Shown: positions 2,197 through 50,776 of the stretch, one piece after another
Layout of the letters: each line of letters starts with the position of its first letter
Position numbering within the stretch: position 1 is the first letter of the stretch
Made by a program: the position numbers and the translations under genes
Notes under the pieces: model-generated
Databases searched by the model: none
Seen by the model: only the letters and a program-made list of their open reading frames with translations
What the model was told of the DNA's origin: nothing
Assembly (NCBI GenBank): GCA_963799775.1
Contig: CAWCYD010000003.1
Coordinates: forward strand, 640,001 to 704,000
DNA: 64,000 nt
From: an uncultured archaeon
Lineage (GTDB): Archaea > Thermoproteota > Nitrososphaeria > Nitrososphaerales > Gagatemarchaeaceae
Direction of reading: 5' to 3'

Positions 2197-2478
2197 TCAC
2201 CCCTCGAGAACGGGTTTGAGCCGCCTATACTCTTTCAGCATGAGGTCGAGGGTCGGGCGTAGGTTCCCTGTGGTCTGGTATTGTCTGAGGGCCTCATAAT
2301 ACTGCTTTCTGTTCTTCAGCTCGATGTTCAAGGGAAGTAGTCCATGCTTAATCAGGGCGTTGATCAGCAGCAGCCTGCCGACCCTGCCATTACCGTCTTG
2401 GAAAGGATGAGTCGTCTCGAACTGGTTGTGCAACACATTTATCATGACGAAACGGCCCGGAATCAGAAAATTGAGCAA
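2197..2478 (-). pseudogene. Fic/Doc-family protein, C-terminal fragment
   Basis: Canonical Fic motif HPFQDGNGRVGR, but only about 20 aa precede it; the N-terminal part is missing. Confidence 0.75.
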
Positions 2479-2499
2479 CCGGCCGCGGCGGCATCGTCA

Positions 2500-6836: not shown

Positions 6837-7246
6837 ACCCTTCGATCGTGTTCGATACCGGCGCCCTCACCCTGTTCTGCGCCGAAGATGAGAGGTTGCG
6901 CGAGTTGGTCGACAAGTCGGACGAGCAGGGCGCGACCCAGTTCGTCTCAGCCGTCACAATCGGAGAGTTCTACTACAAGACATGCCAAACTCTGGGCCGC
7001 GAGACCGCAAGCGTCTGGTCAAAGCAAATCAGTGAAAGGATGGAAATCGTCAGCGTGGATGCAGACACGTCTCTTTCTGCAGGGCTCGAGAAATGCAGAA
7101 ACAACAGACTCTCGCTCGCCGATTGCTACGCTCTGACACTAGCAAAGCAAGTTAGAGGGCTGCTTCTAACCACAGACAGCGAACTGGCCAAAAGCAAGGA
7201 AACTTCCGTGAGGCTTTTCCAGGTGGGTGCGTCGTCGAAAGTCTAG
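6833..7246 (+). CDS. PIN-domain toxin (VapC-like)
   Basis: IVFDTGAL...TIGEFY...LSLADCYALTLA...LLTTDSEL. Confidence 0.88.
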   Translation: MNPSIVFDTGALTLFCAEDERLRELVDKSDEQGATQFVSAVTIGEFYYKTCQTLGRETASVWSKQISERMEIVSVDADTSLSAGLEKCRNNRLSLADCYALTLAKQVRGLLLTTDSELAKSKETSVRLFQVGASSKV

Positions 7247-9723
7247 GTGGCGGACTCTTTCGTCTCATCGAATTCGTCTGAGGTCTTCCTCCGCCGCTTC
7301 ACTATCTGCCTCGCTCCCAAGGCGATGACGACGATTATCACGATGACGATCAGTATCGGAAGGATGCTCCCGATTATCCCCAGGCTCCGAGAGGTCGCGC
7401 CCGAGATAGGGAGACTGCTCCCCGAGGTGACGAGGATGTTCGTCCCGGTCGTCTGGTTCCCCAAGGCCGGGTCATGGACCACGGCCGTGACGGTGGCGAC
7501 GCCGTTGGTTGCAGGGATGAAAGTGTCGGTAAACTGCCCGTTCGCATCGGTGACCCCGCCCGGAGTGAGCATGCTGCCCGAGGTCGTCGAGATCGAGACG
7601 TTCGCGCCCTTCACGGGCACCCCGTTAGCGTCGACCTGCAGCTGGACGGTTGCAGTGGCCGCGATGGCGATCACAGGCTCGGAGCTTATGAGAGTTATCG
7701 AGACAGGCAGGGACAACTCCAAGAGGTTCGCGCTGGATGAGCTCAGACCGCTAGACGAAGCAGTCAGGACCGTCGACCCTGGGCCCGAAGTCTTGACCAT
7801 CGTCCAGGCGTAGTCCGCTCCCTGTGGGATGTCGAGCTGGAGCGGCTTGGAGATCATGCTGCTGTTGGAGCTGGTTATCACGATTGGGGTGTCCTGCCGC
7901 GCCCGCGCAGGCTGCGAGGTCGAATCCTGCAGCTGGACTGCGATTATCGCGTCTCCCTGAGGCCCGAATGATTGGATCCCGCTCGAAGGGGCGATGTAAA
8001 AGCCGAGCTGGGAGGGCGCGGGGCTCACGCTCGTGAAACTCGCGGCCGAGGAGGAATAGCCAGAGGCCGTCGCTGTGATGTTGGCGACGCCGGGCGAGAT
8101 CGTCGTGCTCACGTTCGCGAGGGCGAAAGAACTGCCCGCGGCGAGGATGACGCTGGAGTTCAGGGTAGCGATGTTGGTGGTCGAGCTCGTCAGCATCACG
8201 GTTGTGTTAGCCGGCGCCTCGGCGGGGAGCCCTGATGCGTCCTCGAACGAGACCAGGAGCACAGAGTAGGCGTTCCCATCGGCCGGCAGCTTGGAGACCA
8301 CAGATTGGACAGCGACTTTGGTCGGCGTCGGGCCATAGCTGGCGACCGAGATGGAGGCCGACTGGAGGTTCTGGGCGATCGCCGTGATGAAGGTGCTCCC
8401 GACGGAGAAGGTGGACGTGAACGTAGCAACAGCGAAACTAGAGCCGGCGGCGATCGTCACATCCTCACCGACGTTCCCTACGGACGCATCTGAGGAGGTG
8501 AGCGTTACCTGGGTGTCTGTGGTCGCTAGAGCGGGGTTCCCACTGGCGTCGGTCAACGCCACCAGTATCGAGTCGTAGGGTTTCGCGTCAGCGGGGACAG
8601 GGTTGGGGGCAACCTCGAGGGCCAGCTTGACAGGGGAGACCGGACTGACCACCGTGACCACTGAGAACGCCGACCTTAGGCCCGGTGAGGATGCCGTGAG
8701 GTTAGCATTGCCGGCCACCGAGGCGCTCGAGAACGACGTCACCGAATACACCTCTCCCTGATGAATCGTGACGGTCTGCTGGACCGACACAATCGTGGTG
8801 TTAGACGATGCTATCACGACCGAGACAGGCGCGGGAGCAGGAGTCGGGTTTCCAGACGAGTCTACGAGAGTCACCACGAGCCTTCCTGAGGTGGCGGTCG
8901 CGACCGGGTCAGGCTGGGCGAAGAGCGCGAGACCGAAGGGCGAGGCCCCCTGAAGCGAGACAGTGCCCGACCCTGAGCCGAAACCAGAGGCCGAGGCAGT
9001 GATAGTCGCCGACCCAGGAGAGGCGCCCACATCGTACGCCGTCGAGGCGAAGATGGACCCGCTTGCTATCGTCAGAGTGCTGTTCGGAAGGCTCGCCACG
9101 TTGTTGTCCGAAGAGGAAAGCGTCACCAAGATGGGCGAGCTAGACTTTGCGGGAGACCCCGTAGAGTCGAGGGCCTCGACCAGAACGATTCCTGGAGCAG
9201 ACTGGCCCACCACCTGTGTCCCGGGAACGGGTATCACGCTCAGGCGGGTCGCGAAACCGCTGAGGGTGACAGTTGTGAGCGAAGTAGACACCGCGCTGAG
9301 TCCTGGCGAAGAGGCCGAGATCGACGTCGTCCCAGGAGTTGTGCTTGTGGTGAAGTTTGCGACCGCGAAGCAGGCCCCCTTCGAGATTGTCGCCTGCGAA
9401 GAGATGCTCCCGACGCCAGCCTGGGAGGAGGTCAGGAACACGACAGTGTCATTGAGCGCGAGAGACGCCCCGCCGGAGCTCTCTAAGTAGACCACCACCG
9501 CGGGATATGATCCGCCATCCGCGGGAAGCTTGGGCGGGATGACCGAGATGGCCAACGAGGTGGGAGTCGCCGAATGACTCTGAGCCGGGGATGAGGTGGT
9601 CGTCGTGGTGCTCGTGGTCGATGTCGATGCGGCCATGGCACCGGGGAAAACCAGGATTGAGAGAAGAAGCAACGCGGCGAATGAGAGAGCGCGAGACAGC
9701 GCGCCGCCAGCATAGCTCTTCAT
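7243..9723 (-). CDS. Cell-surface protein with repeated Ig-like (invasin/Big-like) domains and C-terminal TM anchor
   Basis: Signal peptide, repeated PPKLPADG / LTSSxxxV..V modules, GVTDANGQFT, C-terminal hydrophobic helix followed by KRRRK. Confidence 0.85.
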   Translation of the reverse strand: MKSYAGGALSRALSFAALLLLSILVFPGAMAASTSTTSTTTTTSSPAQSHSATPTSLAISVIPPKLPADGGSYPAVVVYLESSGGASLALNDTVVFLTSSQAGVGSISSQATISKGACFAVANFTTSTTPGTTSISASSPGLSAVSTSLTTVTLSGFATRLSVIPVPGTQVVGQSAPGIVLVEALDSTGSPAKSSSPILVTLSSSDNNVASLPNSTLTIASGSIFASTAYDVGASPGSATITASASGFGSGSGTVSLQGASPFGLALFAQPDPVATATSGRLVVTLVDSSGNPTPAPAPVSVVIASSNTTIVSVQQTVTIHQGEVYSVTSFSSASVAGNANLTASSPGLRSAFSVVTVVSPVSPVKLALEVAPNPVPADAKPYDSILVALTDASGNPALATTDTQVTLTSSDASVGNVGEDVTIAAGSSFAVATFTSTFSVGSTFITAIAQNLQSASISVASYGPTPTKVAVQSVVSKLPADGNAYSVLLVSFEDASGLPAEAPANTTVMLTSSTTNIATLNSSVILAAGSSFALANVSTTISPGVANITATASGYSSSAASFTSVSPAPSQLGFYIAPSSGIQSFGPQGDAIIAVQLQDSTSQPARARQDTPIVITSSNSSMISKPLQLDIPQGADYAWTMVKTSGPGSTVLTASSSGLSSSSANLLELSLPVSITLISSEPVIAIAATATVQLQVDANGVPVKGANVSISTTSGSMLTPGGVTDANGQFTDTFIPATNGVATVTAVVHDPALGNQTTGTNILVTSGSSLPISGATSRSLGIIGSILPILIVIVIIVVIALGARQIVKRRRKTSDEFDETKESAT

Positions 9724-9786
9724 TTCAGGTCGCCTCGTTGAGCCGAGCGTATATAGCCGGTTGGTGTGTCACTTTGGTCAGGACAC

Positions 9787-12700
9787 CTACGAAAGAGACT
9801 TCGACATGTCCCTTCTCATCCTCATCAAGACAAGGATCGACGCGGAACCCGCTCCGGCGACGGCCGCGACCATGACGAAGAGCGAGATGATGCTCAGCGC
9901 CACTCGGCCGACAGGGATTGTCGCGCCAGAGGCCGCGTCTCCGTCGATGTGGGCGGTAGACCCCAAGCTTGTCACTTTCGCAGAATAGGTCCCGAGAGGT
10001 ATCATGGCCACGGAGAAGATCCCGTTGCTCTTGGTCACGCCGTTGATTGTGGTGCCGTTGGCGAGAGACATCGCGACGTGGGCCCCTGCCACAGGCAGCC
10101 CGAAGAGGTCGACCACCTTGAGGGAGGCGCTATACACTCGCGTCTCCAGTGTGATGTTGAGCGGCGCTCCCTTCACGACGAAGGAGGGCGAGCCCGCAGG
10201 CCCGACGCCGACTCCTTCCCAAACCACCGAGGAGACCGAGAAAGCCGTCCCGTTCGGGAACCACGCCGAGGAACCTTGGATCTCCGTTGTCGAGTTGCCT
10301 ATGGTTAGGTCGACGACGCTCGGTGTGACGGCGTTCCGTCCAACGCTGTCGAAGAACTGGAAGTTGACCAGATACTGCGTGTTCGCAGTGAATGCGAGTG
10401 TCACGGGGCCCGTGAAGGTCACGGAGGGCGTCGTGAAAGTGGAGGAGCTGGCGGAAGCTTGAACGGGGACTGGCGTTGCCCCGTTGATTGAATACGAAGA
10501 CAGGGTCTCAATCGTCCCTTGGCCCGAAGTGGCATTCCATTGGCGGGGGACCGTGAACGTCTCCTTCGAGCCGGAGTCGAAGTAGGAGTCCTGGGTCGGG
10601 GACGGAGGGATCGCAGAGACCTGCTGCGGGCCCGAGGTCGAGAGGAGGTATTGTGTCACGGAAGTTATCGCTATGGTGTGCGCCCCAGTCATGGACAGGC
10701 TGATCAGGAAGGTGCTGTTTCCAGGGCGCGTCAGGGTTGTCTTCGCGCCCCCGTCAATCGTGTAGCTCGTCGCGCTCTGCCTCGAGCCCGTCGAGTTGGT
10801 CGCCCAGGTCGAATCGAAGACAGCCTTGACGGCGACGCCGGAGTCATACCACCCTGGCAGATCTCCGGGGATGGTGGAGTTGGTGACCGATATCCACGGG
10901 ACCGGATTGGAGCTGAGGTGATACTGCGGGCCGGTCTTGGTCGTTATCGCTTCAGGCGCCGATATCCCGGACAGGCTGAGAGCTTGGACGGTGGAGGTGC
11001 TGAAGACGGTCGTCGTCTTCAGGCTGACCGTGTACGACACCAGCCTGCTCCCTGCGCTTGCAGTCCTTCCCCATACTCCGTTCAAGACGACCGAGACCGG
11101 CGTTCCGCTGTCATACCAATACTTGTCACCTGCAATCGCGGGAGGCGTGATCGAGGAGAGCGAGGCGATCCCTCCGCTGTCGAGGGTCAGCTGGTATTGC
11201 GTGACCACGTCGCCTGAGATCGACTCGGGCGATGTGATCTGCGCAAGATTGAGCGCGTTCACCAGACCGGACGAACCCACAGCGACGGGTGCCCCGCCGC
11301 TGATGGAGTAGGAGGCCAGCCTGTCTCCTGTGCCCGAGGCCCTGCTCCAGACGCTGTTCAGCACGACGCCCACAGGCGTCCCAGAGTCGTACCAGCCGGA
11401 GTCCAAGGGTATGCTGGGGCTCGTTATCGTTGATAGGGCGCTCGTCGTCGCCTTGTCGAGGGTCACCTGGTACTGGACGACGCTGGTGGTGTTGATGAGT
11501 TGAGGGGCAGTCATCGCCCCCGTCCTGATTGTCAACTGGTTCGTCTGGGCGATCTTTGTGACAGGCCCGCCGTCGAGCTGCCACGAAGCGGTCCGGTCGC
11601 CCGTCCCCGCGGAACGAGAATAGATCCCGTTGAGCACGACGCTCACGGCGGGGGATCCGGCATCATACCAGAAGGTGTCTCCCTGGAATGTGGACGGAGG
11701 TGAGACCGAGGCGAACGCACCAGCCGCTGCCGGGTTCAGCACCACCTCGTACTGCGTGGCGCTAGTTGTGGTGATGGAGATGGGGGTCTGGATTAGTGGA
11801 TTGGAGTAAGCTTGGATGGTCCCTGTGGTGTTGACGTGAAGGGTGGGCTGACCTGTTGCCGAGATGGATGTCAGTCGATGCCCGGTGCCGCCCGCTCTTC
11901 CCCAAGCTCCGTTGAGGGCGATCTGGACGGGTGAACCTGTGTCATACCAGTAGTTGTCTCCAGGGATGGTGGGCGGAGTGATGGAGCTGAGGCCCCCGCT
12001 CGCTCCCGCGTCGAGGCTTACCTGGAACTGGGTCACTGACTTGAAGGTGATGGTGTGGGGCCCTTCCATCGAGATGTAGAGGGTCAGCGTGGATAGGGGC
12101 TGAGACAGCGTCACGGGGCTCTTGGAGTCGATGGTGTAGGAAGTCACTCTGTATCCCGTCCCTTGTGACCTTCCCCAGACGCCCGGCGTGTTGAGGGTCG
12201 TGTTCGTGCCTGCGCTGACCCACTGCGTGGGGAGCGTCGCGCCTACGATGGTGAGGAGGTATTGCTGGTCGTAAGCGACGTCCACGATGTTGTTGGGGGC
12301 AGGGCCGATTATGGTCCCTGTCGCGGCGGGCGCGAACCACCTCTCAGTGCTTCCTGAGCTGGCGAGGATGCTCGTTGTGGAATACGTTGTCTGAGCGTCA
12401 GCCCAGAACATCTGCTCGCTTGTGGTGAGCGTCAACTGCTGGACGCTTCCCGCGAACATGTAGCTGAGGTTCGGCTGTGTCGACGACGGTGGAGCTTGCA
12501 GGCCCACGATGGAGAACGCGAACCCTTCGAGATACTGATGGAAGTAGACTGGGCTGATTTTGGTGGCCTGCGTTATCGTTCCCGTGGTCGAGTTGTTCAG
12601 CTCCCATCTCTCGCTGCTGTTCGTGCTGATGCAGCAGATATCAGCCGGCAGAGTGTAGGTCGAGCCGCCGTCGACCCAGACCGCCTCGTTCGCAGACGTC

Positions 12701-13737
12701 GAAGCCTTTGAGCCGAATTGCTGGTAGTTGAAGGGCGGCAGCGTCAAGCCCGTGGTGCTCCCTCCGTTGAACGTGAATGTGACGTTCACAAGGAACTGCT
12801 GGTAGTAGACCGGGGTGACCGGTATCGGGCCGGTCACCGTCCCGTTGTTGTCCATCGAGAGCGCCGTCCCCGTCTGCGCGGGCACCAAGACGGTCCCAAC
12901 CCACTTCTGATTGGTCACACTCACGGGCGTGATAACGGAGGTCCACGAATAGGATGCCCCCGCATCGAACCAGACGTTCTGAGTGCTCGGGCTCAGAGTG
13001 ATGCCCGTGTTCGAGCCGAATGCCATGCTGTCGATGACCGGGGCTGCCGGCGGTCCGCCCCCCACGACAGAGTAGCTCGTTGCGACCAGGTATTGGTGCC
13101 AATAGGTCGAGGTGATGCTCGTGGGAGCCGAGATCGTGCCGCTTCCACCCGAGGGGAGTATCCATCTCTCGTTGGTGGAGGTTCCAGGGAGCTCACCGCT
13201 GTAAGAGTAGGGGGAAGAGGCATCCACCCAGACCGGGCTGGCTCCCGCGGGCGATGAGGTGCCCGATCCCATCTCGTCATAGCTGACGGACGGCGGTGAG
13301 TATCCTGACCCTCCTTTCGTGATGTTGAAGTTGAACGTCACCAGGTACTGATGGTAATAGCTGAAGCTGATCGTCAGAGGCGTCGTGATGACGCCCGAGA
13401 CGTCCTGACTGGTCGTCCACCTCTCCTTGCTCGAGGAGCCGTTGAGGACGGTCAGGGCGCTCCATTGCGTCCCCGAATCCACCAGGTAGCCTGTGGGCGT
13501 CGAGGTCAGGGGGACGACCACGGTCGCTCCGCCGCTTACGTATTGCAACAGGTCTTGAGTGCCGCTGGAGCCGCCGCCGATGACCGAGTAACTCGCGGTG
13601 AGGGTGACCTGCGACGTGGCGTGCGCAGGGACCGCAGAGGGCCCGGCGATGAAGGAGAACGCTAGAAATGCGACGGTTGCGAGTGACAGAACCCCCAAGA
13701 CTGAGCGAATCCTCAATTTCCGGCCCTCACCACTCAT
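9787..13737 (-). CDS. Large secreted S/T-rich surface (S-layer-like) protein with C-terminal anchor
   Basis: Signal peptide; repeats with YYHQYLV, W(V/Y)DxG and ERW motifs; C-terminal TM. Confidence 0.85.
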   Translation of the reverse strand: MSGEGRKLRIRSVLGVLSLATVAFLAFSFIAGPSAVPAHATSQVTLTASYSVIGGGSSGTQDLLQYVSGGATVVVPLTSTPTGYLVDSGTQWSALTVLNGSSSKERWTTSQDVSGVITTPLTISFSYYHQYLVTFNFNITKGGSGYSPPSVSYDEMGSGTSSPAGASPVWVDASSPYSYSGELPGTSTNERWILPSGGSGTISAPTSITSTYWHQYLVATSYSVVGGGPPAAPVIDSMAFGSNTGITLSPSTQNVWFDAGASYSWTSVITPVSVTNQKWVGTVLVPAQTGTALSMDNNGTVTGPIPVTPVYYQQFLVNVTFTFNGGSTTGLTLPPFNYQQFGSKASTSANEAVWVDGGSTYTLPADICCISTNSSERWELNNSTTGTITQATKISPVYFHQYLEGFAFSIVGLQAPPSSTQPNLSYMFAGSVQQLTLTTSEQMFWADAQTTYSTTSILASSGSTERWFAPAATGTIIGPAPNNIVDVAYDQQYLLTIVGATLPTQWVSAGTNTTLNTPGVWGRSQGTGYRVTSYTIDSKSPVTLSQPLSTLTLYISMEGPHTITFKSVTQFQVSLDAGASGGLSSITPPTIPGDNYWYDTGSPVQIALNGAWGRAGGTGHRLTSISATGQPTLHVNTTGTIQAYSNPLIQTPISITTTSATQYEVVLNPAAAGAFASVSPPSTFQGDTFWYDAGSPAVSVVLNGIYSRSAGTGDRTASWQLDGGPVTKIAQTNQLTIRTGAMTAPQLINTTSVVQYQVTLDKATTSALSTITSPSIPLDSGWYDSGTPVGVVLNSVWSRASGTGDRLASYSISGGAPVAVGSSGLVNALNLAQITSPESISGDVVTQYQLTLDSGGIASLSSITPPAIAGDKYWYDSGTPVSVVLNGVWGRTASAGSRLVSYTVSLKTTTVFSTSTVQALSLSGISAPEAITTKTGPQYHLSSNPVPWISVTNSTIPGDLPGWYDSGVAVKAVFDSTWATNSTGSRQSATSYTIDGGAKTTLTRPGNSTFLISLSMTGAHTIAITSVTQYLLSTSGPQQVSAIPPSPTQDSYFDSGSKETFTVPRQWNATSGQGTIETLSSYSINGATPVPVQASASSSTFTTPSVTFTGPVTLAFTANTQYLVNFQFFDSVGRNAVTPSVVDLTIGNSTTEIQGSSAWFPNGTAFSVSSVVWEGVGVGPAGSPSFVVKGAPLNITLETRVYSASLKVVDLFGLPVAGAHVAMSLANGTTINGVTKSNGIFSVAMIPLGTYSAKVTSLGSTAHIDGDAASGATIPVGRVALSIISLFVMVAAVAGAGSASILVLMRMRRDMSKSLS

Positions 13738-13950: not shown

Positions 13951-14772
13951 ATGCGCCCTCGGGTGTTGAATCTCGCTGCTCCTTCAAGCGAAGACACCTA
14001 CGAGCTTCTGCTCAACGTAAAATCAAAGATAGGCGTGCTCCATGAGATAACGGGGTTCCTTGCGAAGTCCAAGATAGACATACTCTCCATGCACATCCAA
14101 GCGGCACGAGGAAAGACGGCGGTCATCGTCGCGTACCTTGAGATGGAGGAGTCCAAGACCAACGTCCAGAAGCTCTTGCGAGACCTCCGGGACCTTGATT
14201 TCGTCATCGAGGCAGAGGCCGTGAAGAAGGACGGGCTCATGTTCGAGGAATTCCTATTCCCGATCTTGGTAGACGACGAAGTACGAGGATTCCTGATGAC
14301 GGACAGCGCCTGGATGTCCATAGCGTCCAGGATGGTCCTCACCTACGGAACGGGAGGGCTGGCGATCCTCTACGAGGCAGGGTTGGCGTGCGGCGAGGAA
14401 TACGCCCGGCACCTCCACGCCAAGTTGGGGCTCAACGCGAGCGCAAAGGCGGCCATCGAGAACCTCGGCGCCATGCTGAGGGCAGTGGGGATGGGCGTCA
14501 CAGAGATGAACGCGACCACCGACGGGTTCCTCGTGAAGGTCACGCAACCGGTAATCCCGGCGACGGAGACCAAATTCCACGACCGATTCCTGGCGGGCCT
14601 CATCGCCGGCGCGGCGGGGAGGTTGATGGCCACTAGCTACTCGGTGGAGAACGTAAAGTTCGAGGGAGACGAGCTGAGTTTCAAGCTCAGCCAGCGCGCT
14701 CCTGAGAACCGGACAAACGAAGCCAGAGCCAGAGGTCCTGAGAGCTCGATCAAGAGCGTCCGAGTGCCCTAG
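13951..14772 (+). CDS. ACT-domain plus V4R-like domain protein
   Basis: N-terminal KSKIGVLHEITGFLAKSKIDILS (ACT); C-terminal YGTGGLAILYEAGLACGEEY...LRAVGMG (V4R/HNOB-like). Confidence 0.75.
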   Translation: MRPRVLNLAAPSSEDTYELLLNVKSKIGVLHEITGFLAKSKIDILSMHIQAARGKTAVIVAYLEMEESKTNVQKLLRDLRDLDFVIEAEAVKKDGLMFEEFLFPILVDDEVRGFLMTDSAWMSIASRMVLTYGTGGLAILYEAGLACGEEYARHLHAKLGLNASAKAAIENLGAMLRAVGMGVTEMNATTDGFLVKVTQPVIPATETKFHDRFLAGLIAGAAGRLMATSYSVENVKFEGDELSFKLSQRAPENRTNEARARGPESSIKSVRVP

Positions 14773-16149
14773 GCCTGCTTCTTGACGTGCAGGCCGCCCG
14801 AATCGTAGCTAAAGTTGGCCGAGTAGAGGTTCCTGACCACGTTGATCGTCTTGTCATCGTGGGCCTTTGAGAGGACTATGGAGACGAAGACGACGTCGCC
14901 GCGGCTCACTATCTCGTTCATCTGTCTAAGGAACTTGTAGGTCTCCTGGAACCCTCCGTCGAGGATCATCGACGAGATGTTGTCGAAGACGATCGCCTTC
15001 GGCTTTTCCGGGGACTCGGTGACCGCCTCGTCCATCACGTTCAGCAGCACCGAGTGGTCGTTTCGGGGGACAAGGACCTCGAGCGGCGTGCCAGACGCCT
15101 TTGGATAGGAGACGTCGGCGAAGACGAAGAAGCGCACCCCTGGGGCCTCGTGAACCAAGAGATAGACGGGGCTTCCCTTGGAGGTGAGGACGAAGACGGT
15201 GCGCCCTTTGGCCAGCATGTCCTGCCCAAAGTCCCTGATCGCGCGCTCGTAGTTGGAGGAAGGGTCGGCCTCCAGGAGCGTGGACCCCTTGTATTCTACC
15301 ACGCTACCTCGCGCTCCGGGTTCCCTATTAATATCCGATGGGGTCATGGTGGCCGAATTCGCGGAATCCGTCGGCTTGAAGAGATCCTCGAGGACGGAGC
15401 CCCGTCTCATGGCTATCCCTATGCTCGCCAGGAGGAGGCCGACGATCACCTGGCCGGGTGCTATCGCGTCGACGGAGACCGTGGGAAGGTAGCCCAGGAT
15501 CATCAGGCCCACGAACGCTATCAGTGTCCCAGCCCCCCGAGATCAGCGTCACGGCCCTTCTCGTGGAGCTGTCGCGTATCGCCCTGATGCCTATCACGTA
15601 CTCGGTGGTCGGGAACACGAGGAAGATGAGGAACGCCACCTCTGCGAGGCCGAGGAACGAGCTGTCCAGTCTCGGAAGGAGGTCTTGTGCGCCCGTAAAG
15701 TCGTGGAGGGTGGCGATCGTGAAAGGCTGCTTCACCACCAATAGGACGTCCAGAGCGAGCAGGTAGGCCACGAACAGGAGGAGGCCGAGGCCGTAAGGAA
15801 AGAAGCGCTTTGTGACGAGGGCCACCACCCTCTCTTGGAACGTCGGCTCCGGAGGCCGACAGCAGATGACGTAGGCCAGGCTCGTCAGCAGGATCCCTAT
15901 CCAGAGGATCAGGCTGATCGTCCCGACCGTGTAGAACTCCATGTAACCCGGGACCGAAGAGAAGATGCCGCGCAGGAACTCGAGGAGGAAGATCACCAGG
16001 ATGAAGACGTGAGCGAAGACGAGGATCCACTTCGCGTCGTAGAGCCTGGATATCTTCTGCCTGAGGACGAACCGGAGCGCCACCGACCCTGCCGCGAACT
16101 CAAAGATCGCGAAGAGGACGACCAGAGAGACGGGTAGCGAGCTCGTCAA
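14769..16149 (-). CDS. Multi-TM sensor fused to a DUF835/KaiC-like inactive P-loop domain (frameshift near 15528)
   Basis: ORF 15328-16149 (several TM helices) joins ORF 14769-15512 (more TM, then AIVFDNISSMILDGGFQETYKFLRQM). Confidence 0.7.
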
Positions 16150-16193: not shown

Positions 16194-16970
16194 TCAATCT
16201 TCCACGCCTGCGACCTGAGGGCTCCTACCGCCCTCCGCAGACAGCACCGACATGACCATGAGGATGCCGCCGAGACAGATCCCTATCCTCCCAACCCAGA
16301 ACACGACTGCGTCGAATTGCCAATCAGACAAGAGAAGGGCGAAGAGGCCCACCGCGATCGTCGCCAAGGACCAGGAATACCAATACAGGATTGAGGAGGT
16401 CGACCTGAGCCCTATGAGGACCGCCGCCAGTCCGAAGATGGCGATCGCGCCGCCGAGCACGGTCTTAGCCGCCGAAGTCGCCCCCGCCCCGGGGTTGAGG
16501 AATCTTGGGAGCACTCCTTGTCCGGCGGCCAATACTATAGCGCCGACGAGGAGCACTGACAGGGCCATGACCCCGAGAGCCGCTAGGCCCGAACCTCTGC
16601 GTTCACTTTGGTGAAAGAACCTGGAAGCCGCGCACGAGAGATGCAGGACCGCTGAGCAGACCGCGGCCAGGATGAAGACCAAGGTGGAGATGTTCGAACC
16701 AGAGTTCCCTGCGAGCAATGCTGCGACCAGCGCTGCGACGCCGAAGACCAGGGAGCCCGACCCCAAGAAGAGCATGCTCGGGAGACCTTCCTTGACGTAG
16801 GCTCTCACCGACACATAGGAGACTATCACTGAACCCGAGGTGATGAAGACTATCGTCAAGACCGGGAAGACAGGGACGGGCAGGGGAGAGGCGGTGAGCT
16901 TCGCCTCATAACTCAAGACGGTGAGAACGACGAGAATCGCCGCTCCGACAGCGCCTTGAAGCCTGGCCAC
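16194..16970 (-). CDS. Stand-alone polytopic membrane protein resembling a MASE3-type sensor domain
   Basis: About 8 hydrophobic segments; VSYVSVRAYVKEGLPSMLFLGSGSLVFG; no kinase domain follows. Confidence 0.6.
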   Translation of the reverse strand: MARLQGAVGAAILVVLTVLSYEAKLTASPLPVPVFPVLTIVFITSGSVIVSYVSVRAYVKEGLPSMLFLGSGSLVFGVAALVAALLAGNSGSNISTLVFILAAVCSAVLHLSCAASRFFHQSERRGSGLAALGVMALSVLLVGAIVLAAGQGVLPRFLNPGAGATSAAKTVLGGAIAIFGLAAVLIGLRSTSSILYWYSWSLATIAVGLFALLLSDWQFDAVVFWVGRIGICLGGILMVMSVLSAEGGRSPQVAGVED

Positions 16971-16979
16971 TACTCAGCT

Positions 16980-17489
16980 TCACTTTTTGAAGGCGGCTGC
17001 GAATCTTTGCGAAGTGAGCTCGATGGAGGCCTCCAGTTGCCGATTATGGTGTGAGACCAATTCTGACCTGTGCGCGCCGTCGCTCGGCAACGTCGCGAGT
17101 TCGACGAACCTCTTCAAGATCTTCTTCTCGTTCGACGTCACTGAGTGGTTCGGTGCTCCGGCGAGCGCCACGAGGCCCGACCAGCGGTGATGAGGTCTAT
17201 CCTTCCCTACTTGGTCTGCCGTGTTACGAAGCAGTATCCTCGCTATCTCGCATTCGATTATGTGCGCGCCCCTCTCTTGGAATATCTCAGTCATCGCTTG
17301 GTGGAACCTCAAAGGATCGGCCGCGAGACTGGGAAGGGGGTGGAGGCTGAGTAGCATCTGAAGCCCGCTCTCTCCCACGACCTGGCGCAGGCCCTCGGTC
17401 ACGCTCTGCTCTAGGACTACCTGGAAATCTGGCGCGCCGCTTTTCTTTCGCACTCCGGGCTCCAAATCGAGGTCTTTTGCCGGTTGCAT
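16980..17489 (-). CDS. Hypothetical protein (DUF3227/NitrOD-like output domain)
   Basis: VLEQSVTEGLRQVVGESG...DPLRFHQAMTEIFQERGAHIIECEIARIL pattern. Confidence 0.55.
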   Translation of the reverse strand: MQPAKDLDLEPGVRKKSGAPDFQVVLEQSVTEGLRQVVGESGLQMLLSLHPLPSLAADPLRFHQAMTEIFQERGAHIIECEIARILLRNTADQVGKDRPHHRWSGLVALAGAPNHSVTSNEKKILKRFVELATLPSDGAHRSELVSHHNRQLEASIELTSQRFAAAFKK

Positions 17490-17652
17490 CAGGAATCTAT
17501 ATAGGGATTATGAATTTGGTAATACACCGCGGTCCAGGCGAGCTCCAACTTGCAATAATTGTAGTCTGCTCCCTGTAGTTCATCGGACCTATCTGGAATA
17601 GTAACGTGGTCCTGCATATTCCGATAATACACGAACGGCCGCTGAAGCAGAC

Positions 17653-17886
17653 ATGAATTCTCTGTTTCTGCACAGGCTGGTCAAGGCGGCGCCGTTCGCA
17701 ATGACCGTCTTCGGCGTTCTCTTAATGGCCCACGGGGTTCATGGAGTCGTCCACAACGGGGATCCGGGAGGCAATGGCGGACCCAACATCCACGCCATCT
17801 CCAACGGAGACCCCGGCGGCAACGGTGGGCCCAACCTTGGCAGGATTTCTAACGGCGATCCGGGCGGAAACGGTGGACCTAACTAG
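17653..17886 (+). CDS. Small secreted prepeptide with three NGDPGGNGGPN cores (peptide A)
   Basis: 77 aa: basic N-region, hydrophobic stretch, AHGVHGVVH, then three 16-aa-period repeats that differ only at synonymous positions within the cores. Confidence 0.85.
   Translation: MNSLFLHRLVKAAPFAMTVFGVLLMAHGVHGVVHNGDPGGNGGPNIHAISNGDPGGNGGPNLGRISNGDPGGNGGPN
17755..17883 (+). repeat. Three 48-bp-period coding repeats
   Basis: Cores start at 17755, 17803 and 17851; identical 11-aa peptide with 6-7 synonymous differences per pair. Confidence 0.9.
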
Positions 17887-18986
17887 GTCCACCGTTGGGC
17901 CTTTATTCTCATCTTCTGAGGGAGGATCTTCTCCAGAGCTGACTTGGGCTCGAAGAACCATCCTTTCTCGTCATCGTAGTTCTCGTAGGGGATCGTGTAC
18001 CAGAAGCTCGTGGACAGGTCGAGCGTCCAGGCCGTCCATGTGCCCACTTGCGCGCTGAGATGCTGTGACAGGAACCTCATGGATTCCATGAGCGACCCAG
18101 CTGGGACAGCGCAATGCACCTGGTAGTAACCGTCTTTCCGGCCGGCTTCGAACCAGGAGAACGGGAAGTTGTTGAACAAGGTCCTGAGCGCCTCTAGATT
18201 CTTCTTCGTCAGGTTGTTGAACTCGTAGACGAGCCCTGCTGAGGTGCCTACGTCCTTCTTCGAGTCCGGGAGCCAGTGGACGTAGCTGGAGAGGGCCGTC
18301 GGAGATACGTGCTTCGCGTAATGCCAGCGCAACGTCCGCTCATTGATGCGGAGCTTCCTCGCTATCTCTGCGATGTTACGCCAAGAGTCCAGCTCGAGCT
18401 CCTTTATGATCAGGGTGTCGGTCGAGTCGATCTCTGGCGATGCGCTTGGTTCTTCCGCGCCCGATATCGCTGGCGGCTTCTCCGTCTGTTTTGCAATCTC
18501 GTCCCAGTCTATGGACCAAGCCCCTCGGCTGAAATCATAGAATCTGCTCTTGATCTCCGGGTGTCGAGACCACTCCAGCCTTTCTATCCGGGCCTCTGTC
18601 AGCACGCCTTCATGCACGAGCCTGTCCATGAACTTTCGGAACTCGTCGGTGACGGCGACAGGGACTGCGAAGAACGAAAGATAGCGAAGGTCTGCCGGGC
18701 TCTTCACCCAATAGGTCAGGAATGCGGAGGAAGAGAGGCTGTCGAGGATTGCCGGAGCGGAGTTCCTGGATTCCTCCGTGAACTTCATCACGACGAAATA
18801 GCGCTCGAGCCCCATGTAGTCGTAGTTCACGGGCGTCCTGATGTCCAGGCCCAGGGTAGGAAACCTCTTCTTCACCGTGTATCTTACGGTCTCTACCGGC
18901 ATCCCGCTCATCCGTGAGAGGAGCGAGATGTTCTGGATCCCGACTCTGTCGATTGCCTCAATCAGCTTTGTGATGTCCCGAGTCAT
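17883..18986 (-). CDS. Tandem Lrp/AsnC-like (HTH-RAM x2) transcriptional regulator A
   Basis: N-terminal HTH (NISLLSRMSGMPVETVRY), VNYDYMGL linker, second IDSTDTLIIKELELDSWRNIAEIARKL Lrp-type HTH. Confidence 0.8.
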   Translation of the reverse strand: MTRDITKLIEAIDRVGIQNISLLSRMSGMPVETVRYTVKKRFPTLGLDIRTPVNYDYMGLERYFVVMKFTEESRNSAPAILDSLSSSAFLTYWVKSPADLRYLSFFAVPVAVTDEFRKFMDRLVHEGVLTEARIERLEWSRHPEIKSRFYDFSRGAWSIDWDEIAKQTEKPPAISGAEEPSASPEIDSTDTLIIKELELDSWRNIAEIARKLRINERTLRWHYAKHVSPTALSSYVHWLPDSKKDVGTSAGLVYEFNNLTKKNLEALRTLFNNFPFSWFEAGRKDGYYQVHCAVPAGSLMESMRFLSQHLSAQVGTWTAWTLDLSTSFWYTIPYENYDDEKGWFFEPKSALEKILPQKMRIKAQRWT

Positions 18987-24514: not shown

Positions 24515-25800
24515 GGCTCCTCGATATGGGCGATTAAATACTCTAGCATCCGATTAGAGCATGTCTGTCGTTGCCATGCTCTCGGTTTGGCAGCCTCATG
24601 ATAACGGTGTCTTGACTGGAATTCTACGTGAATGCAGGATCCTGACATACAACGCAATCGAATATGCTGAAAACAACGGACTAAAGAGCAGGAAGCAGAT
24701 GAACGGGTTCTACCGGTCGATAAATAGTGTCAATCTACCATCCTGCTTCAAACTCGCAATAATTACGCGCGCCTGTTCTGTACTTAGGAGTAGGAGAAAG
24801 AGCGAAAACAAATCCGTCCAGGTGAAGTATCGAAAGCCTCTGAAGCTTATGGCCTGCATAACAGCTGGATTCTTCATTACCTCTAAGGGCAAGTTGTTCA
24901 TCTCGCTGGGTCATGATAAATTCGAGATGGTCCAACTCAACTGCTACGCCTTCGCCAAAGTCTCTGCGCCCAATATCAAAATGAGGAGCCTGACAATAAC
25001 AGAAGATAGGATTGGAATCTGCTACTCGAAACAGGTTGAAGCGATACATTGTCATCGAGTCTTCGGTGTCGATAGGAACGAGAAGAACCTCACTTTTGGC
25101 AATCGAGATGCATTCGAGACGATAGATCTGTCACAGATAGCGCGAGTGAATCAGACAACGAGAGAGATCCTGAGCTCCTTCAAAAGAAACGATGATAGAG
25201 TCAAGAGACGACTATTCGATAAGTACTGGGGACGGGCCAGTAGAAGAACGAATCAGGTGCTCCACGATGCGACTAACCGTATCGTTGAAAAAGCTAGATC
25301 TGAGGGTGCGGCGTTGGCCCTTGAGGACATCGCAGGAATCAACAAGATGTATCAGAAGGGCAACGGGCAAGGAAAAGACTATCGATTCAGGATGAATTCC
25401 TGGGCGCATGGAAAGACATGCAGGATGATCGATTACAAATCTGCCGACAAGGGCGTGACTGTTGTGAAGCTCACAAAAACAGAGACCAGAGGGTCTTCAT
25501 CGACTCATTTTGGGTGTGGGGAGAAGCTCCAAAGCCCAGCCAAGAGAGATCTGGTTCATCGGCGACACCTCTGGTGCAATAAATGCGAGCGTTGGGTTCA
25601 CCGCGACGTCAACGCGGTGTTCAATCTGGCTGACAGGGGGCTGTCCAGGCTTGCCAGTTCCCTGCCTCCTTCTGAGAAGATGGAGGTGAAAGGGCATGCA
25701 GGTGAAGCTATGAATGGGAATCCGACGACGATGGCAGTAATCCCAGGAGCAGATGCCATGCAAGTGGACTCTGGGTGCGAACCGAAGAGTTAACAGAGCC
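24515..25800 (+). mobile_element. tnpB-only element 2 with GGCTC termini and a putative 8-bp target duplication
   Basis: GGGATTTG|GGCTCC...ACAGAGCC|GGGATTTC; internal ATGGGCGATTAAATA promoter; AT-richer than the flanks. Confidence 0.65.
24561..25793 (+). CDS. tnpB: RNA-guided endonuclease TnpB (intact RuvC D-E-D)
   Basis: FGVDRNEKN, LALEDIAGI, WCNKC, HRDVNAVFNL. Confidence 0.9.
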   Translation: MSVVAMLSVWQPHDNGVLTGILRECRILTYNAIEYAENNGLKSRKQMNGFYRSINSVNLPSCFKLAIITRACSVLRSRRKSENKSVQVKYRKPLKLMACITAGFFITSKGKLFISLGHDKFEMVQLNCYAFAKVSAPNIKMRSLTITEDRIGICYSKQVEAIHCHRVFGVDRNEKNLTFGNRDAFETIDLSQIARVNQTTREILSSFKRNDDRVKRRLFDKYWGRASRRTNQVLHDATNRIVEKARSEGAALALEDIAGINKMYQKGNGQGKDYRFRMNSWAHGKTCRMIDYKSADKGVTVVKLTKTETRGSSSTHFGCGEKLQSPAKRDLVHRRHLWCNKCERWVHRDVNAVFNLADRGLSRLASSLPPSEKMEVKGHAGEAMNGNPTTMAVIPGADAMQVDSGCEPKS

Positions 25801-26356: not shown

Positions 26357-29300
26357 TTGAATATCTTAGGCCGCAGGGCCGGCCCGTTAGTTATTGCAGT
26401 AGTTGCCGTCTTCTTGGCGTTTTCGGCCCTGGGTTATCATGCAGCTTCCGCAACAACAGGAACCACCACGAGTGTTTCATGCACTCCATCAATCACTGTC
26501 GGTAACCCCGCGACGTGCACGGTAACGGTAACACCAAGCTCTGCGGATGCAGCGACCGTCACCATCGCTCAAACAGGAGGAAGCGGGGCCGTGACCGGTT
26601 CGAGCTGCATGACAAGCCCGGCAAACAGTGAGACGTGTACTACAAACCTACCCAGCACCGGTGCAGGAAGCGTTACTGTGACGGCGACCTACCCAGCTGA
26701 TAGTAACTTCATGACGAGCTCCGACCCAACGAGCTTCACAGTGAATCCAGCCCAGAGCAGTGTTTTCGTCAGTTGTGCTCCCTCACCTGTCGTCGTTGGC
26801 ACCTCGACCACGTGCACCGCCACCGTCGGCGGGTATGGTACGCCTTCGGGAACTGTGACTTTCACACAACCGACAGGGACAGGGACCACTTCGCTCGTAG
26901 GTCCGGGCACCACGTGCGCCCTAAGTTCAGGGACTTGCCAGGTCACCGTCTCGACCACCGCGGCAGGGGGAGCCGGCATATTGGCCTCGTATCCGGGTGA
27001 TGGCGTGAACAACAAGGCGGGCTCGGGTTCGACAAACCTCACTATCAACCAAGTCACCAGCACGACGACGGTGGTCTGTGCGCCCTCGACCTTGATAGTC
27101 GGTCAGCCGGCCACGTGCTCGGCGACGGTGAGTGGGTATAATCCTACAGGCATCATCAATTGGCAGTCGACGGACAGAAGCGGCATTTTCTCCGCGAATC
27201 CATGCATGCTCAACTCGGGCTCATGCGGCGTATCGTATACACCCACCTCCTCGGCGACCATAACCGCGAGCTACTCCGGCGACCAGAACAACATCGGCGG
27301 CTTTGGGACGTTTGCGATCTCGACCCACGTCAACGAGCTGATCCAGGTCGTGGTGGCCAACTCCGGGCCACCGACGCCTCTGAGCCTGTCGGGTTGCTTC
27401 GTCTCTCCGAACACCATAGTCGCTAACGGGACCGCCCAGAAAGTGGAAGTGGCCTCGGCCTGCTCTCTCACGGTGACCCTTCCCTCCGCAGGCGTGAGCT
27501 CCCAGTATGTCACTTCTTCGGGGCTCAACGCCCTGACCATCGGCAGCTGCAACACGGCCACCTGCCAGAGCTATTCTGCAATCATATACTACCAGACCCA
27601 GAACACCTACCAGGCCTTCCCGAAGAGTCCTTCCGCATGGGGTTCGCCGGGGACGATAGTCGTCAACGGCACCCAGCTCGGCTCTAGCGGCCAGACAGTC
27701 TGCTCAATCAAGGTCAGCACAGGCGCGGGCGAGTTCTCATGTGAGGGGTGGACAGACTACAACACCCAGGCGCTCATGGGCTTCCTCCAGCTCTCTCAGC
27801 AGCAGAGATGGGCGAGCCCTCAGAGCTCCTTCACCGACACGTCTGGCGGGAATCAGCACCCCGCAAATTACTTCCTGCAGGTCCTGGAGGGCTTCAGCTA
27901 CTCCGTGATTGGCTCGAGCGGCGCCCCATCGTCGCCAACGCTCTCTTTCACTTCATTGGGCTCGCCGAACTCCTCTCCCCTCATCGGATCCGCCACATCC
28001 ATCTGGCTTGACTCTGGCTCGAGTTGGGCGGTCCCCCAAAGCTTGACGGGCTCGTCGAGCACCGAGAGGTGGCAGACGACGGTCACAACGGGAGCAGCGA
28101 CGGCCAACAAGACGGCGACCATCGTCTATTATCACCAGTTCCTGGTCGACTTTGGCTTCTCTATCGTTGGGGGAGGGACGGCCTACGTCTCCCCGCTCGT
28201 GCAGTTCACCTCCTTCGGAGCACCAGCTAGCGGGACTCAGAACTGGGTCGACGCTGGGAGCCCGTTCAACTACACCAACCCTCTCGCGGGTTCCACATCG
28301 GTAGAGAGATGGCTCGCCGCCTCGCCAAAGGGAACGGTGTCATCCTCGACCACCGTCAATCCGACCTATTACCATCAGTTCGCTTTCAACGTGAACTTCA
28401 CGGTGTCAGGGGGAGGCGCCTACAACAACCCGAGGTTCAACTTCACCGCGATGGGAGTCCCCACCCTGCAGCAGCTCAGCTCGACGCAGTCCACCTATTG
28501 GCTGGACGCGACCACGCCCTGGAGCATCAACTCTCTCCTACCGAGTTCGAACTTCTCGGAGCAGTGGATAACGACGCGCGTCTCCTCAGGGACCGCGACC
28601 TCGCCTTTCATCGCGGACTACCTCTACTACCACCAGTATCTGGCGACCATCCATTACAGCATCCTGGGCTCGGGCGGCTCCCCTCCAGTGCCCTCGATGA
28701 ACTTCACTTCAATCAGCAATACCCAGTCGGCGCACCTCAACAAGACCGCGACGACCTATTGGATGGACGCGGGAAGCTCATGGGTCGCGCCGGTCATCCT
28801 TCCCGGGATACATGACGAGCGCTGGCTCTCCAACATGACGGTCGCCGCGCTGGTTGACCAGCCCTTCAGCACCAACGTCCAGTACGCGCACCAGTTCTTC
28901 GTCTCTGTGGAGGTGAGCACGCCCGCGGGAGGCCAGGTCGCGAACACCGACCAGTGGAGGAACCAGGGCGACACCGAGATACTCAACGCGACATCTGCCA
29001 AGTTTTGGAGCTTCGCATACTGGAAGGGCGCCACGCCGTTCTCTTACAACGGGACGATGGCCCTGCCCACTCTGTTGGTCACAGGCACCGCCAACGAGAC
29101 GGCGATCTTCTTCCCTGGCCTGACGATATCAGCAGAGAGCCAGGGCTCAGTTTCCTACTCCTACGGCAAGATAAACGGGACCGTCCCCGCCGGGGCGAGC
29201 ATGACGATCTACCCGCCCCCGGGCAGGAACGTCACCCTCACCGCCATCCCTGACAACGTCGAGATAATGTTCGGGGGATGGACGGGGGTGCTCGCCAACT

Positions 29301-29479
29301 CGCAGCTCCAGTCCTCGGTCGCCATCAGTTCGCCCGGGCTTGTCCACGCCAGCTTCGCCCTGGACTACACCGACATCCGGACCTTCGCCATCGCGACCCT
29401 CGTCATCTTCGTGGCAGGCTGCTACGTCTTCGTCATCAGGCGCGGGTTCGCGCCCAAGATAAGGCCGTCGAAGACCTAG
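26357..29479 (+). CDS. Large secreted surface protein (Ig-like plus YYHQF repeats), related to 9787-13737
   Basis: Signal peptide; SCxPSxxxVGxxxTCTATV Ig-like modules; YYHQ(F/Y), WxDAG, ERW repeats; C-terminal TM. Confidence 0.85.
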   Translation: MNILGRRAGPLVIAVVAVFLAFSALGYHAASATTGTTTSVSCTPSITVGNPATCTVTVTPSSADAATVTIAQTGGSGAVTGSSCMTSPANSETCTTNLPSTGAGSVTVTATYPADSNFMTSSDPTSFTVNPAQSSVFVSCAPSPVVVGTSTTCTATVGGYGTPSGTVTFTQPTGTGTTSLVGPGTTCALSSGTCQVTVSTTAAGGAGILASYPGDGVNNKAGSGSTNLTINQVTSTTTVVCAPSTLIVGQPATCSATVSGYNPTGIINWQSTDRSGIFSANPCMLNSGSCGVSYTPTSSATITASYSGDQNNIGGFGTFAISTHVNELIQVVVANSGPPTPLSLSGCFVSPNTIVANGTAQKVEVASACSLTVTLPSAGVSSQYVTSSGLNALTIGSCNTATCQSYSAIIYYQTQNTYQAFPKSPSAWGSPGTIVVNGTQLGSSGQTVCSIKVSTGAGEFSCEGWTDYNTQALMGFLQLSQQQRWASPQSSFTDTSGGNQHPANYFLQVLEGFSYSVIGSSGAPSSPTLSFTSLGSPNSSPLIGSATSIWLDSGSSWAVPQSLTGSSSTERWQTTVTTGAATANKTATIVYYHQFLVDFGFSIVGGGTAYVSPLVQFTSFGAPASGTQNWVDAGSPFNYTNPLAGSTSVERWLAASPKGTVSSSTTVNPTYYHQFAFNVNFTVSGGGAYNNPRFNFTAMGVPTLQQLSSTQSTYWLDATTPWSINSLLPSSNFSEQWITTRVSSGTATSPFIADYLYYHQYLATIHYSILGSGGSPPVPSMNFTSISNTQSAHLNKTATTYWMDAGSSWVAPVILPGIHDERWLSNMTVAALVDQPFSTNVQYAHQFFVSVEVSTPAGGQVANTDQWRNQGDTEILNATSAKFWSFAYWKGATPFSYNGTMALPTLLVTGTANETAIFFPGLTISAESQGSVSYSYGKINGTVPAGASMTIYPPPGRNVTLTAIPDNVEIMFGGWTGVLANSQLQSSVAISSPGLVHASFALDYTDIRTFAIATLVIFVAGCYVFVIRRGFAPKIRPSKT

Positions 29480-50651: not shown

Positions 50652-50776
50652 TCCGCGTTTCCGCCGCCTTCAAACGCCTTCAAGTGGACTCCTGCATGCA
50701 CACCATGCGCTGTCATGAAGAGTGAGAAGGCTCCAAAGACGACCAACGCGTACCTTACCTTCTGATCGAGTTCCAT
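50648..50776 (-). CDS. Small hydrophobic prepeptide B (42 aa), homologue of peptide A
   Basis: Manual translation MELDQKVRYALVVFGAFSLFMTAHGVHAGVHLKAFEGGGNAD*; below the ORF-track cutoff. Confidence 0.8.
   Translation of the reverse strand: MELDQKVRYALVVFGAFSLFMTAHGVHAGVHLKAFEGGGNAD

Follow-up and report, generated by a model that had tools for sequence, protein, structure and literature searches.

A hallmark of Bacillota and of their phages is the peptide pheromone with a cytoplasmic receptor adjacent to it. In the precursors of yeast alpha-factor, cyanobactins and plant cyclotides and orbitides a leader is followed by repeated identical cores with short spacers, and the last core lies at or near the C-terminus. 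Phr propeptides of Bacillota can carry tandem pheromone repeats, identical or diverged (PMC5199041, PMC11343458). In SHP and XIP the active part is the C-terminal 7-10 residues of a product encoded beside its regulator, and a membrane protease and re-import by Opp take part (PMC4162386). The present analysis concerns a 77-codon gene in a 64,000-nucleotide (nt) stretch of an archaeal genome (contig CAWCYD010000003.1, positions 640,001 to 704,000 of the forward strand; hereafter the window), whose product carries three identical decapeptide cores behind a hydrophobic leader. An original prediction, made from the letters of the window, had taken the gene for a multi-core precursor; the analysis adds a partner regulator, a conserved upstream block and a wider family of micro-proteins. 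The small gene is real: it is coding, is strictly paired with its partner and has a dedicated conserved upstream block. With less than even confidence, we favour the explanation that it encodes an exported multi-copy propeptide functionally coupled to the adjacent regulator.

Three ancient copies of one decapeptide

The gene, the single occurrence of its core motif in the host genome (2.47 Mb in 3 contigs, 59% G+C, 82% complete), is laid out as listed in Table 1. The 33-nt units starting at 17755, 17803 and 17851 each translate to NGDPGGNGGPN and differ pairwise at 7, 6 and 6 positions, every one of them a third codon position, just as had been claimed of three identical units with diverged DNA. 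All 9 variable sites fall within the 11 third positions (P 1.4e-6 if randomly placed). Independent draws of the genome's codon usage would give 6.12 mismatches for a pair of 10-codon cores; the copies therefore share no DNA likeness beyond the peptide constraint, and the three cores are fully saturated at synonymous sites. The same figures gave no indication of selection for added DNA divergence stabilising the repeat. Tandem Repeats Finder, run with min_score 30, reported no repeat at the small gene. The spacers diverge, as the original prediction also held: IHAIS and LGRIS differ in 3 of 5 residues, and the Nei-Gojobori proportions of nonsynonymous (pN) and synonymous (pS) differences over the window's 6-codon spacers were 0.39 and 0.85.

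No family in Pfam or NCBIfam matched the protein of 77 amino acids (aa). Homologues were collected by protein search, from genomes of the genus, and by metagenome and genome scans. Searching 5.8 billion proteins by a word index brought up 18 further homologues (E 7e-27 to 5e-10). Six genus-mates carry the gene (E <= 4.9e-16), and no convincing homologue was found in 18 searched genomes of other genera. The family profile matched 12 of the 23 genomes of the genus; outside it, among 201 genomes of the order, there were two weak matches only (E ~0.007). The metagenome scan added 18 loci and the genome scan 4. The collection holds 37 distinct proteins from one non-cultured Nitrososphaerota genus, three cores being present in 12, two in 21 and one in 4; the single-core forms, 44 aa long, are conserved.

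The cores are identical in 32 of the 33 multi-copy proteins, a count drawn, like the others on repeat identity, from related sequences; the exception, L034, has two differing residues. The protein ends with the last core in 36 of 37 cases, G011 having a truncated third spacer instead. The family unit is the 10-mer GDPGG-x3-P-[NDST], preceded by N, S, A, G, F, Y, L or H. Thus the 11-residue unit of the original prediction is exact in this genome, to which its leading Asn is particular, and gives way to the 10-mer in the family, where that residue is variable. Fourteen core variants were found, with NGG, NTG, TGG, SGG, PGG, PGE, PGA, SGA or IGG at positions 6-8 and N, D, S or T as the last residue. 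Core types are clade-specific, and copy number varies inside clades. The original prediction had named freely varying cores in orthologues as contrary evidence; what was found is a constant position 9, a GDPGG constant apart from two single variants, and changes at positions 6-8 and 10 only between clades. Positions 6-8, fixed per clade and different between clades, look like specificity-determining positions, although the pattern is no proof of such a role.

Purifying selection on the exact peptide, as predicted, was borne out by the 40 within-gene core pairs available from 22 distinct gene DNAs. Of their 400 third positions 219 differ, as against 2 residues, both in one gene. Within genes pS was 0.65 and pN 0.0035 for the cores; the corresponding values between genes were 0.70 and 0.115. 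The spacers had pS of 0.63-0.67 and pN of 0.35-0.37 (pN/pS about 0.5), and the leader, compared between species, 0.50 and 0.18. Codons mismatched at identical residues with a frequency of 0.548 within and 0.584 between genes. The decapeptide is under very strong purifying selection.

When the window's units were compared with those of its closest relative, L038, same-position units differed by 10, 14 and 5 nt and off-diagonal ones by 14-19 nt; core 3 is the same in both at all 30 nt. The units of L004 and L031 differ by 4, 2 and 1 nt at the same position and by 12-18 nt off the diagonal. Since same-position units are the closest across species, the three-copy state is older than speciation. 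The copies are ancient and have evolved independently without conversion, the peptide being kept. Concerted evolution of the window's gene through conversion is rejected in view of synonymous saturation combined with same-position closeness across species. A recent slippage repeat, which the original prediction had rejected, is likewise at odds with the saturation, the silence of Tandem Repeats Finder and the age of the copies. Young copy pairs do occur elsewhere in the family, copies 1 and 2 of L024 differing at 1 nt, and copies 1 and 2 of L026 and L027 and copies 2 and 3 of L023 at 2 nt; unit duplication or conversion still occurs there.

In a tree of the partner protein each core type is monophyletic, and the outgroups carry one copy. 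The simplest history would be that the tail unit was duplicated repeatedly once each core type had been fixed, and that very strong purifying selection then acted. Given these single-copy outgroups and monophyletic core types, parallel change of an amino acid in every copy need not be assumed. The spacers of P0002, which has three copies of another core type, hint at a core change inside a three-copy gene.

The frame might still be regarded as a chance open reading frame (ORF) or slippage repeat overlapping the 3' end of its neighbour, being short, of low complexity, without a Pfam or NCBIfam family, and with a stop that overlaps the neighbour's stop. We hold this to be practically negligible in view of the exclusively synonymous variable sites, the 37 homologues with a conserved leader, the silent repeat finder and the conservation of the putative promoter block.

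Repeats of other kinds were also seen. In the metagenome loci L035 and L037 a six-residue Gly/Val/Ser/Leu/His unit occurs thrice in the linker between leader and core 1, so that short-unit expansion reaches the His-rich linker too; in L037 the ATG start codon is replaced by ATT. In the window, the ORF 2344..3198(+) contains a Cys-rich 13-residue peptide twice exactly, 24 codons apart (2683..2767), and with 4-5 synonymous differences per 27 nt this repeat is likewise kept at the protein level.

The convergent partner gene and its surroundings

A homologue of the partner adjoins the small gene, always convergently, in 22 of 22 loci (7/7 and 15/15), counts that, like all co-occurrence counts here, are descriptive only, as the compared genomes are metagenome-assembled genomes (MAGs), incomplete and kin to one another. 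Among these partners, two are broken up by frameshifts or masked bases and a third runs into a contig end. In the survey of the 23 genomes of the genus (partner accepted at E <= 1e-60) the partner was found in 13, and in 13/13 a small ORF lies beside it, 12 being detected by the profile and that of G002 by inspection of the adjacent ORF. The 10 genomes without the partner gave 0/10 peptide matches. A second locus with small ORF and partner was recognised in G014 by inspecting adjacent ORFs. The genus-mate G007 has two copies of the module (L049 at C1:1736140, L055 at C1:2160570) with identical partner proteins and a PadR-like gene beside each, which points to a recent segmental duplication.

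The AlphaFold2 (AF2) model of the partner (predicted local distance difference test score, pLDDT, 86; predicted template modelling score, pTM, 0.85) has two winged helix-turn-helix (HTH) plus ferredoxin-like modules. Its best structural match was the fused Lrp-like siroheme decarboxylase NirDL 4ch7 (Foldseek E 7e-10), which aligned over 284 residues with VIA-align Z 17.2, root-mean-square deviation (rmsd) 4.2 and 11% identity. Each half matched Lrp/AsnC regulators with Z 7-7.7 and rmsd about 3.0 over about 143 aligned residues. As modelled, the fold is tandem Lrp/AsnC, a winged HTH being followed by an alpha-beta sandwich in each half. The HTH_AsnC-type family PF13404 is matched by 14 of 19 partner-family members (best E 1.2e-6); the 367-aa protein of the window stays below Pfam cut-offs, and for the effector domain no member of the partner family reaches the Pfam cut-off. 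Neighbours in the ESM Atlas are archaeal clusters of 350-415 aa with the same HTH families. PF17805, the domain borne by the fused or paired Lrp-like modules of siroheme decarboxylases (NirDL/AhbAB), whose genes stand in a haem or d1-haem context, has no match anywhere in the genome. The modelled likeness to NirDL leaves a small chance that the partner binds a cofactor-like ligand rather than DNA. Co-prediction of the regulator with the 77-aa protein scored 0.00, which is evidence neither way. The Lrp/AsnC family is not known to have a peptide ligand.

In the alignment of 20 upstream regions, 24 invariant and 11 nearly invariant columns are concentrated in a 31-nt block, whereas flanking DNA and synonymous sites are scrambled. 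The block ends in a TATA-like heptamer 23 nt ahead of the ATG, and the window's copy departs from the consensus at 3 positions. Searching the genome with up to 9 mismatches allowed gave no further copy. Since Rfam had no family in 17300..18100, the block is not a known RNA. It would be a promoter plus operator, and the mRNA would be leaderless or nearly so. A terminator-like hairpin with a T-rich tail lies just past the stop, inside the 3' end of the partner gene; one such hairpin was found against 0.7 expected in shuffled sequences, a weak signal.

Of the 17 distinct loci whose flanks were long enough, the window included, 13 have the divergent gene pair upstream; it is absent from G017, G013, G008 and L039. 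ESM Atlas neighbours of the 258-aa membrane protein carry MASE3/MASE4 sensor domains in 20-48% of their members; this likeness, drawn from the ESM Atlas alone, is a lead.

Further away, two overlapping ORFs in different frames at 14769..16149(-) encode a membrane part of 273 aa and another part, of 247 aa, that matches DUF835/DUF7504 weakly; the overlap region is the same in relatives, and this may be two genes or one shifted gene. A 410-aa ORF at 24561..25793(+) with a Cas12f1-like TNB domain (PF07282, E 1.4e-9) is probably a TnpB-type transposon nuclease, around which synteny with relatives breaks. ORFs of 826, 1316 and 1040 aa in 7243..13737(-) and 26357..29479(+), with Ig-like/invasin-like and carboxypeptidase-regulatory-like domains, presumably encode surface proteins, and their position is conserved across the genus.

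Table 1. Positions of the features discussed (window coordinates unless a contig is named)
Feature	Position	Strand	Remarks
Small gene: leader, linker, three spacer-core units, stop	17653..17886	+	77 aa, ATG start
Leader, codons 1-28: basic N-terminus, hydrophobic helix, small-x-Gly end	17653..17736	+	
His-rich linker of 7 codons ahead of the first core	17737..17757	+	equivalent to the later spacers
Core copy 1, GDPGGNGGPN	17758..17787	+	
Spacer 1, IHAIS plus N	17788..17805	+	
Core copy 2, GDPGGNGGPN	17806..17835	+	
Spacer 2, LGRIS plus N	17836..17853	+	
Core copy 3, GDPGGNGGPN	17854..17883; stop 17884..17886	+	stop codon immediately after the core
Tandem Lrp/AsnC-like partner, 367 aa	17883..18986	-	convergent with the small gene; stops overlap in the palindrome CTAG
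Nearly invariant 31-nt upstream block	17599..17629	+	from the alignment of 20 orthologous upstream regions
Terminator-like hairpin with T-rich tail	17885..17902	+	weak
Divergent upstream genes: 258-aa polytopic membrane protein; 169-aa protein, no family	16194..16970, 16980..17489	-	
Second module, regulator paralogue of 326 aa	49671..50651	+	26% identity to the 367-aa protein, E 4.5e-26
Second module, 42-aa ORF with leader and Gly-rich tail	50648..50776	-	E 3.3e-16 with a profile it helped to seed
Third module, 40-aa micro-ORF	G000:C3:231309-231431	+	partner at 231476-232561(-)

Micro-proteins beside paralogues of the partner

Six partner paralogues are encoded in this genome, three of which face a convergent ORF that spans 40-77 aa and has a single hydrophobic helix; no recognisable micro-ORF was seen at the paralogues at C3:601442, C1:15278 and C3:1973222. 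In the second module (49671..50776) the genes are convergent and their stops overlap in CTAG as at 17883..17886. The micro-ORF type of the third module is widespread across the order, and partner homologues were found in 20 of 61 genomes sampled there.

A hidden Markov model (HMM) seeded by 13 convergent micro-ORFs was searched on 3062 open frames from 34 partner loci. It gave 17 matches with E < 1e-3, 13 of them its own seeds, and all 17 adjoin a partner gene, 14 convergently and 3 divergently. A profile search of 1.84 billion representatives returned 102 with E <= 1e-3, of which 31 reach E <= 1e-10; all but two of the 102 are <=98 aa, and the match mostly ends at the C-terminus. None of 16 wider-family micro-proteins (0/16) matched Pfam. 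These proteins of about 40 residues have a short charged N-terminus, a helix of ~18 residues, a small-x-Gly motif and a tail of 12-15 residues, in which an acidic residue is followed by a Gly-rich end at the stop codon. The N-terminal segment is their most conserved part, and the His after the helix is not conserved. In P0081, of another subfamily, the tail has been doubled independently, as identical copies with a His-containing spacer.

The comparison of the window's family with the wider family by hhalign gave E 8.7e-4 with a probability of 23% over 33 collinear columns, and the HMM gave E 0.06. Because the layout is shared, the partner is homologous and the profiles show weak similarity, the window's gene is probably a tail-multiplied offshoot of the wider family. 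Each wider-family micro-protein would be genetically coupled to its own tandem Lrp/AsnC-type regulator. Upstream of the wider-family genes the motif TTAG[ATC]A is found 79-83 nt before the ATG in 6 of 16 cases; within 90 nt it occurs in 8 of 16, compared with 1.8 in shuffles, but as the motif was chosen after looking this is a lead.

Largely unannotated pairs of micro-ORF and regulator are found repeatedly within an archaeal order. Nowhere is this clearer than in the window's gene, whose three copies, synonymously saturated yet identical in peptide, pin down the selected part of the product.

Possible fate of the tail and comparison with known systems

The AF2 model has a helix at residues 3-28 (pLDDT 70-84) and no fold in the tail (pLDDT below 50), which is predicted to be disordered. 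In 23 sequences the leader ends with Gly at position -1 without exception (23/23), and position -3 is A in 16, L in 2, V in 2, M in 2 and S in 1, that is, A, V or S in 19. A leader of this kind could be a signal peptide or a membrane anchor. Judged by its basic residues before the helix and its small-x-Gly end, it should place the tail outside the cell, and signal peptidase may cut after the small-x-Gly motif. As the repeat unit corresponds to the entire post-helix tail of the single-copy forms, the three-copy gene looks as if it gave three products per translation.

According to the explanation we favour, the expressed product would be a propeptide whose N-terminal export or membrane-insertion helix carries the C-terminal tail across the membrane. 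The tail would be released and cut between the units, giving several copies of one peptide, and multiplication of the tail would yield more peptide per translation. The peptide would feed back on the adjacent regulator, directly or through a sensor, and the regulator would act at the small gene's invariant upstream block. The genome encodes Opp-type binding proteins and M50 proteases, which permit a Phr- or SHP-like mechanism and do not show it. The originally predicted multi-core precursor, with its putative processing, is consistent with the 1-3 copies, the proteins ending at a core and the disordered tail. Inspection by eye showed no fit of the sequence to N-glycosylation sequons, to sorting signals of the sortase or archaeosortase type, or to class III (pilin) signal peptides.

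If the helix is not cleaved, the product would be a bitopic micro-protein that stays in the membrane, N-terminus in and C-terminus out, with the repeated tail displayed outside. The tail would then be a sensor, or bind metal or another ligand via His, Asp and Asn, with repeats adding binding sites, and the micro-protein would modulate the adjacent regulator or merely be its dedicated target. For a disposable signal peptide the conservation of the leader between species is unusual, as is that of the N-terminal segment in the wider family; the uncharged stretch can reach about 23 residues, His is frequent in linkers and spacers, the gene pairing suits a membrane partner as well as a signal, and the MASE-like membrane protein, itself a lead, is often nearby. 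Such a protein, however, would have a cytoplasmic part of only about 10 residues, and the His after the helix is not conserved in the wider family. Proteins that end exactly at a core and gain or lose whole units are more typical of product dosage, and the spacers evolve nearly as fast as weakly constrained sequence. An uncleaved membrane protein is quite possible, though we consider it doubtful.

Once a signal peptide has been removed, the tail of 49 residues could also be secreted and act whole, for example as a cation-binding or surface-associated Gly/Pro-rich peptide. Each core has Asp, Asn and Gly-rich turns, no protease site is recognisable between the units, and repeat proteins of the genome share the signature of identical peptide and diverged DNA. 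This seems unlikely to us, given that AF2 finds no fold in the tail, that conserved single-core forms imply that one unit suffices, and that the spacers are poorly conserved.

The original prediction had raised cyclisation or Asn-specific cleavage, which would make the gene product a strict multi-core RiPP (a peptide made by ribosomes and modified after translation) whose cores are modified or cyclised head to tail by enzymes encoded elsewhere. The layout of leader, repeated core and spacer agrees with this, as do cores with Gly at the start, usually Asn or Asp at the end, and plenty of turn-forming Gly and Pro. But, as the prediction itself had stated for the vicinity, Pfam revealed no tailoring-enzyme family among the 18 neighbouring ORFs (7.2 to 29.5 kb), where the conserved neighbour is a regulator, and the C13 peptidase family PF01650 had no match in the genome, which is 82% complete. 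Moreover, a transpeptidase would require follower residues, and none come after the last core; the boundary residues vary, S or T may stand at the terminus, and tails of other kinds occur in the wider family. This part of the prediction found no support, and a strict RiPP is quite improbable.

Several observations weigh against the exported propeptide that we favour. Position -3 of the leader is L or M in 4 of 23 sequences, and conservation of the leader exceeds what is ordinary for Sec signal peptides. The wider family's N-terminus is charge-balanced, not basic, and fits a functional membrane helix as well. The spacers have no dibasic motif (no Lys/Arg pair occurs in any of them, so a Kex2-type site is absent), no evident protease site, and variable boundary residues. 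Elsewhere in the genome, 60 further pairs of overlapping 9-mer repeats differ at 4 nt or more, most of them in proteins with repeat domains; as such proteins show a like pattern, the signature proves purifying selection and not processing. Export, cleavage, release and binding are predictions. On the side of the partner, the best structural match is the enzyme NirDL, so that its role may be other than regulatory; the convergent arrangement amounts to linkage and is silent on which gene regulates which; and the co-occurrence counts, coming from related and incomplete MAGs, are not independent. Sequence homology between the window's family and the wider family is weakly supported.

Should the peptide be a signal, cell-cell communication of archaea and a new class of ligand for Lrp/AsnC proteins become open to direct test; otherwise, archaeal transcription factors still gain a new, conserved micro-protein partner in the membrane. 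In its broadest form the proposal would be the first peptide-based cell-to-cell signalling in archaea, with widespread exported propeptides of ~40 residues, a dedicated tandem Lrp/AsnC pseudo-dimer sensing the acidic, Gly-rich C-terminal peptide, clade-specific 'pherotypes', several parallel pairs per genome and a repeatedly multiplied signal module. We rate this broad form as somewhat unlikely; were signalling demonstrated, a categorically new archaeal system would be a real possibility. Literature searched on archaeal peptide signalling, Lrp-partnered micro-proteins and RiPP precursors contained nothing describing the archaeal pair. In a survey of archaeal RiPPs none of the terms 'Nitrososphaer', 'multiple core' and 'signal peptide' occurs and its three passages hold nothing relevant to the gene family (PMC12144867), and in the RRNPP_detector paper the word 'Archaea' does not occur.

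With the multi-core precursors of alpha-factor and RiPPs the archaeal gene has in common the repeated cores and spacers behind a leader and the position of the last core. It differs from alpha-factor in that its spacers have no dibasic sites, and from the cyanobactin and cyclotide precursors in that no clustered protease, macrocyclase or tailoring enzyme and no C13 peptidase was found. The partner resembles NirDL 4ch7 in having two winged-HTH plus ferredoxin-like modules in the same arrangement, but differs in its low identity, in the absence of PF17805 from the genome and in its six paralogues, half of them paired with a micro-ORF.

The partners of RRNPPA systems have a tetratricopeptide repeat (TPR) peptide-binding domain, in place of which the archaeal partner has a tandem Lrp/AsnC fold. 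The archaeal host, the convergent genes with overlapping stops and the Gly/Pro/Asn/Asp decapeptide are further differences, and in the archaeal system maturation, import and binding are putative. Because a TPR domain, clustered enzymes and dibasic sites are all missing, it works at most like the known systems and is a member of none. Compared with Rgg/SHP and ComR/XIP of streptococci, the regulator has another fold, the leaders are much more conserved, and both convergent and divergent arrangements occur; the very short precursors of those systems have their counterpart in the wider archaeal family, whose proteins of about 40 aa share a conserved acidic-then-Gly-rich C-terminus. The likeness to Rap-Phr and other RRNPPA systems covers several features: in both, a small propeptide gene lies beside the gene of a cytoplasmic HTH-bearing partner, an N-terminal export segment precedes an active C-terminus (in the archaeal gene by prediction), some propeptides are multi-copy, the variants are lineage-specific, and copy number turns over.

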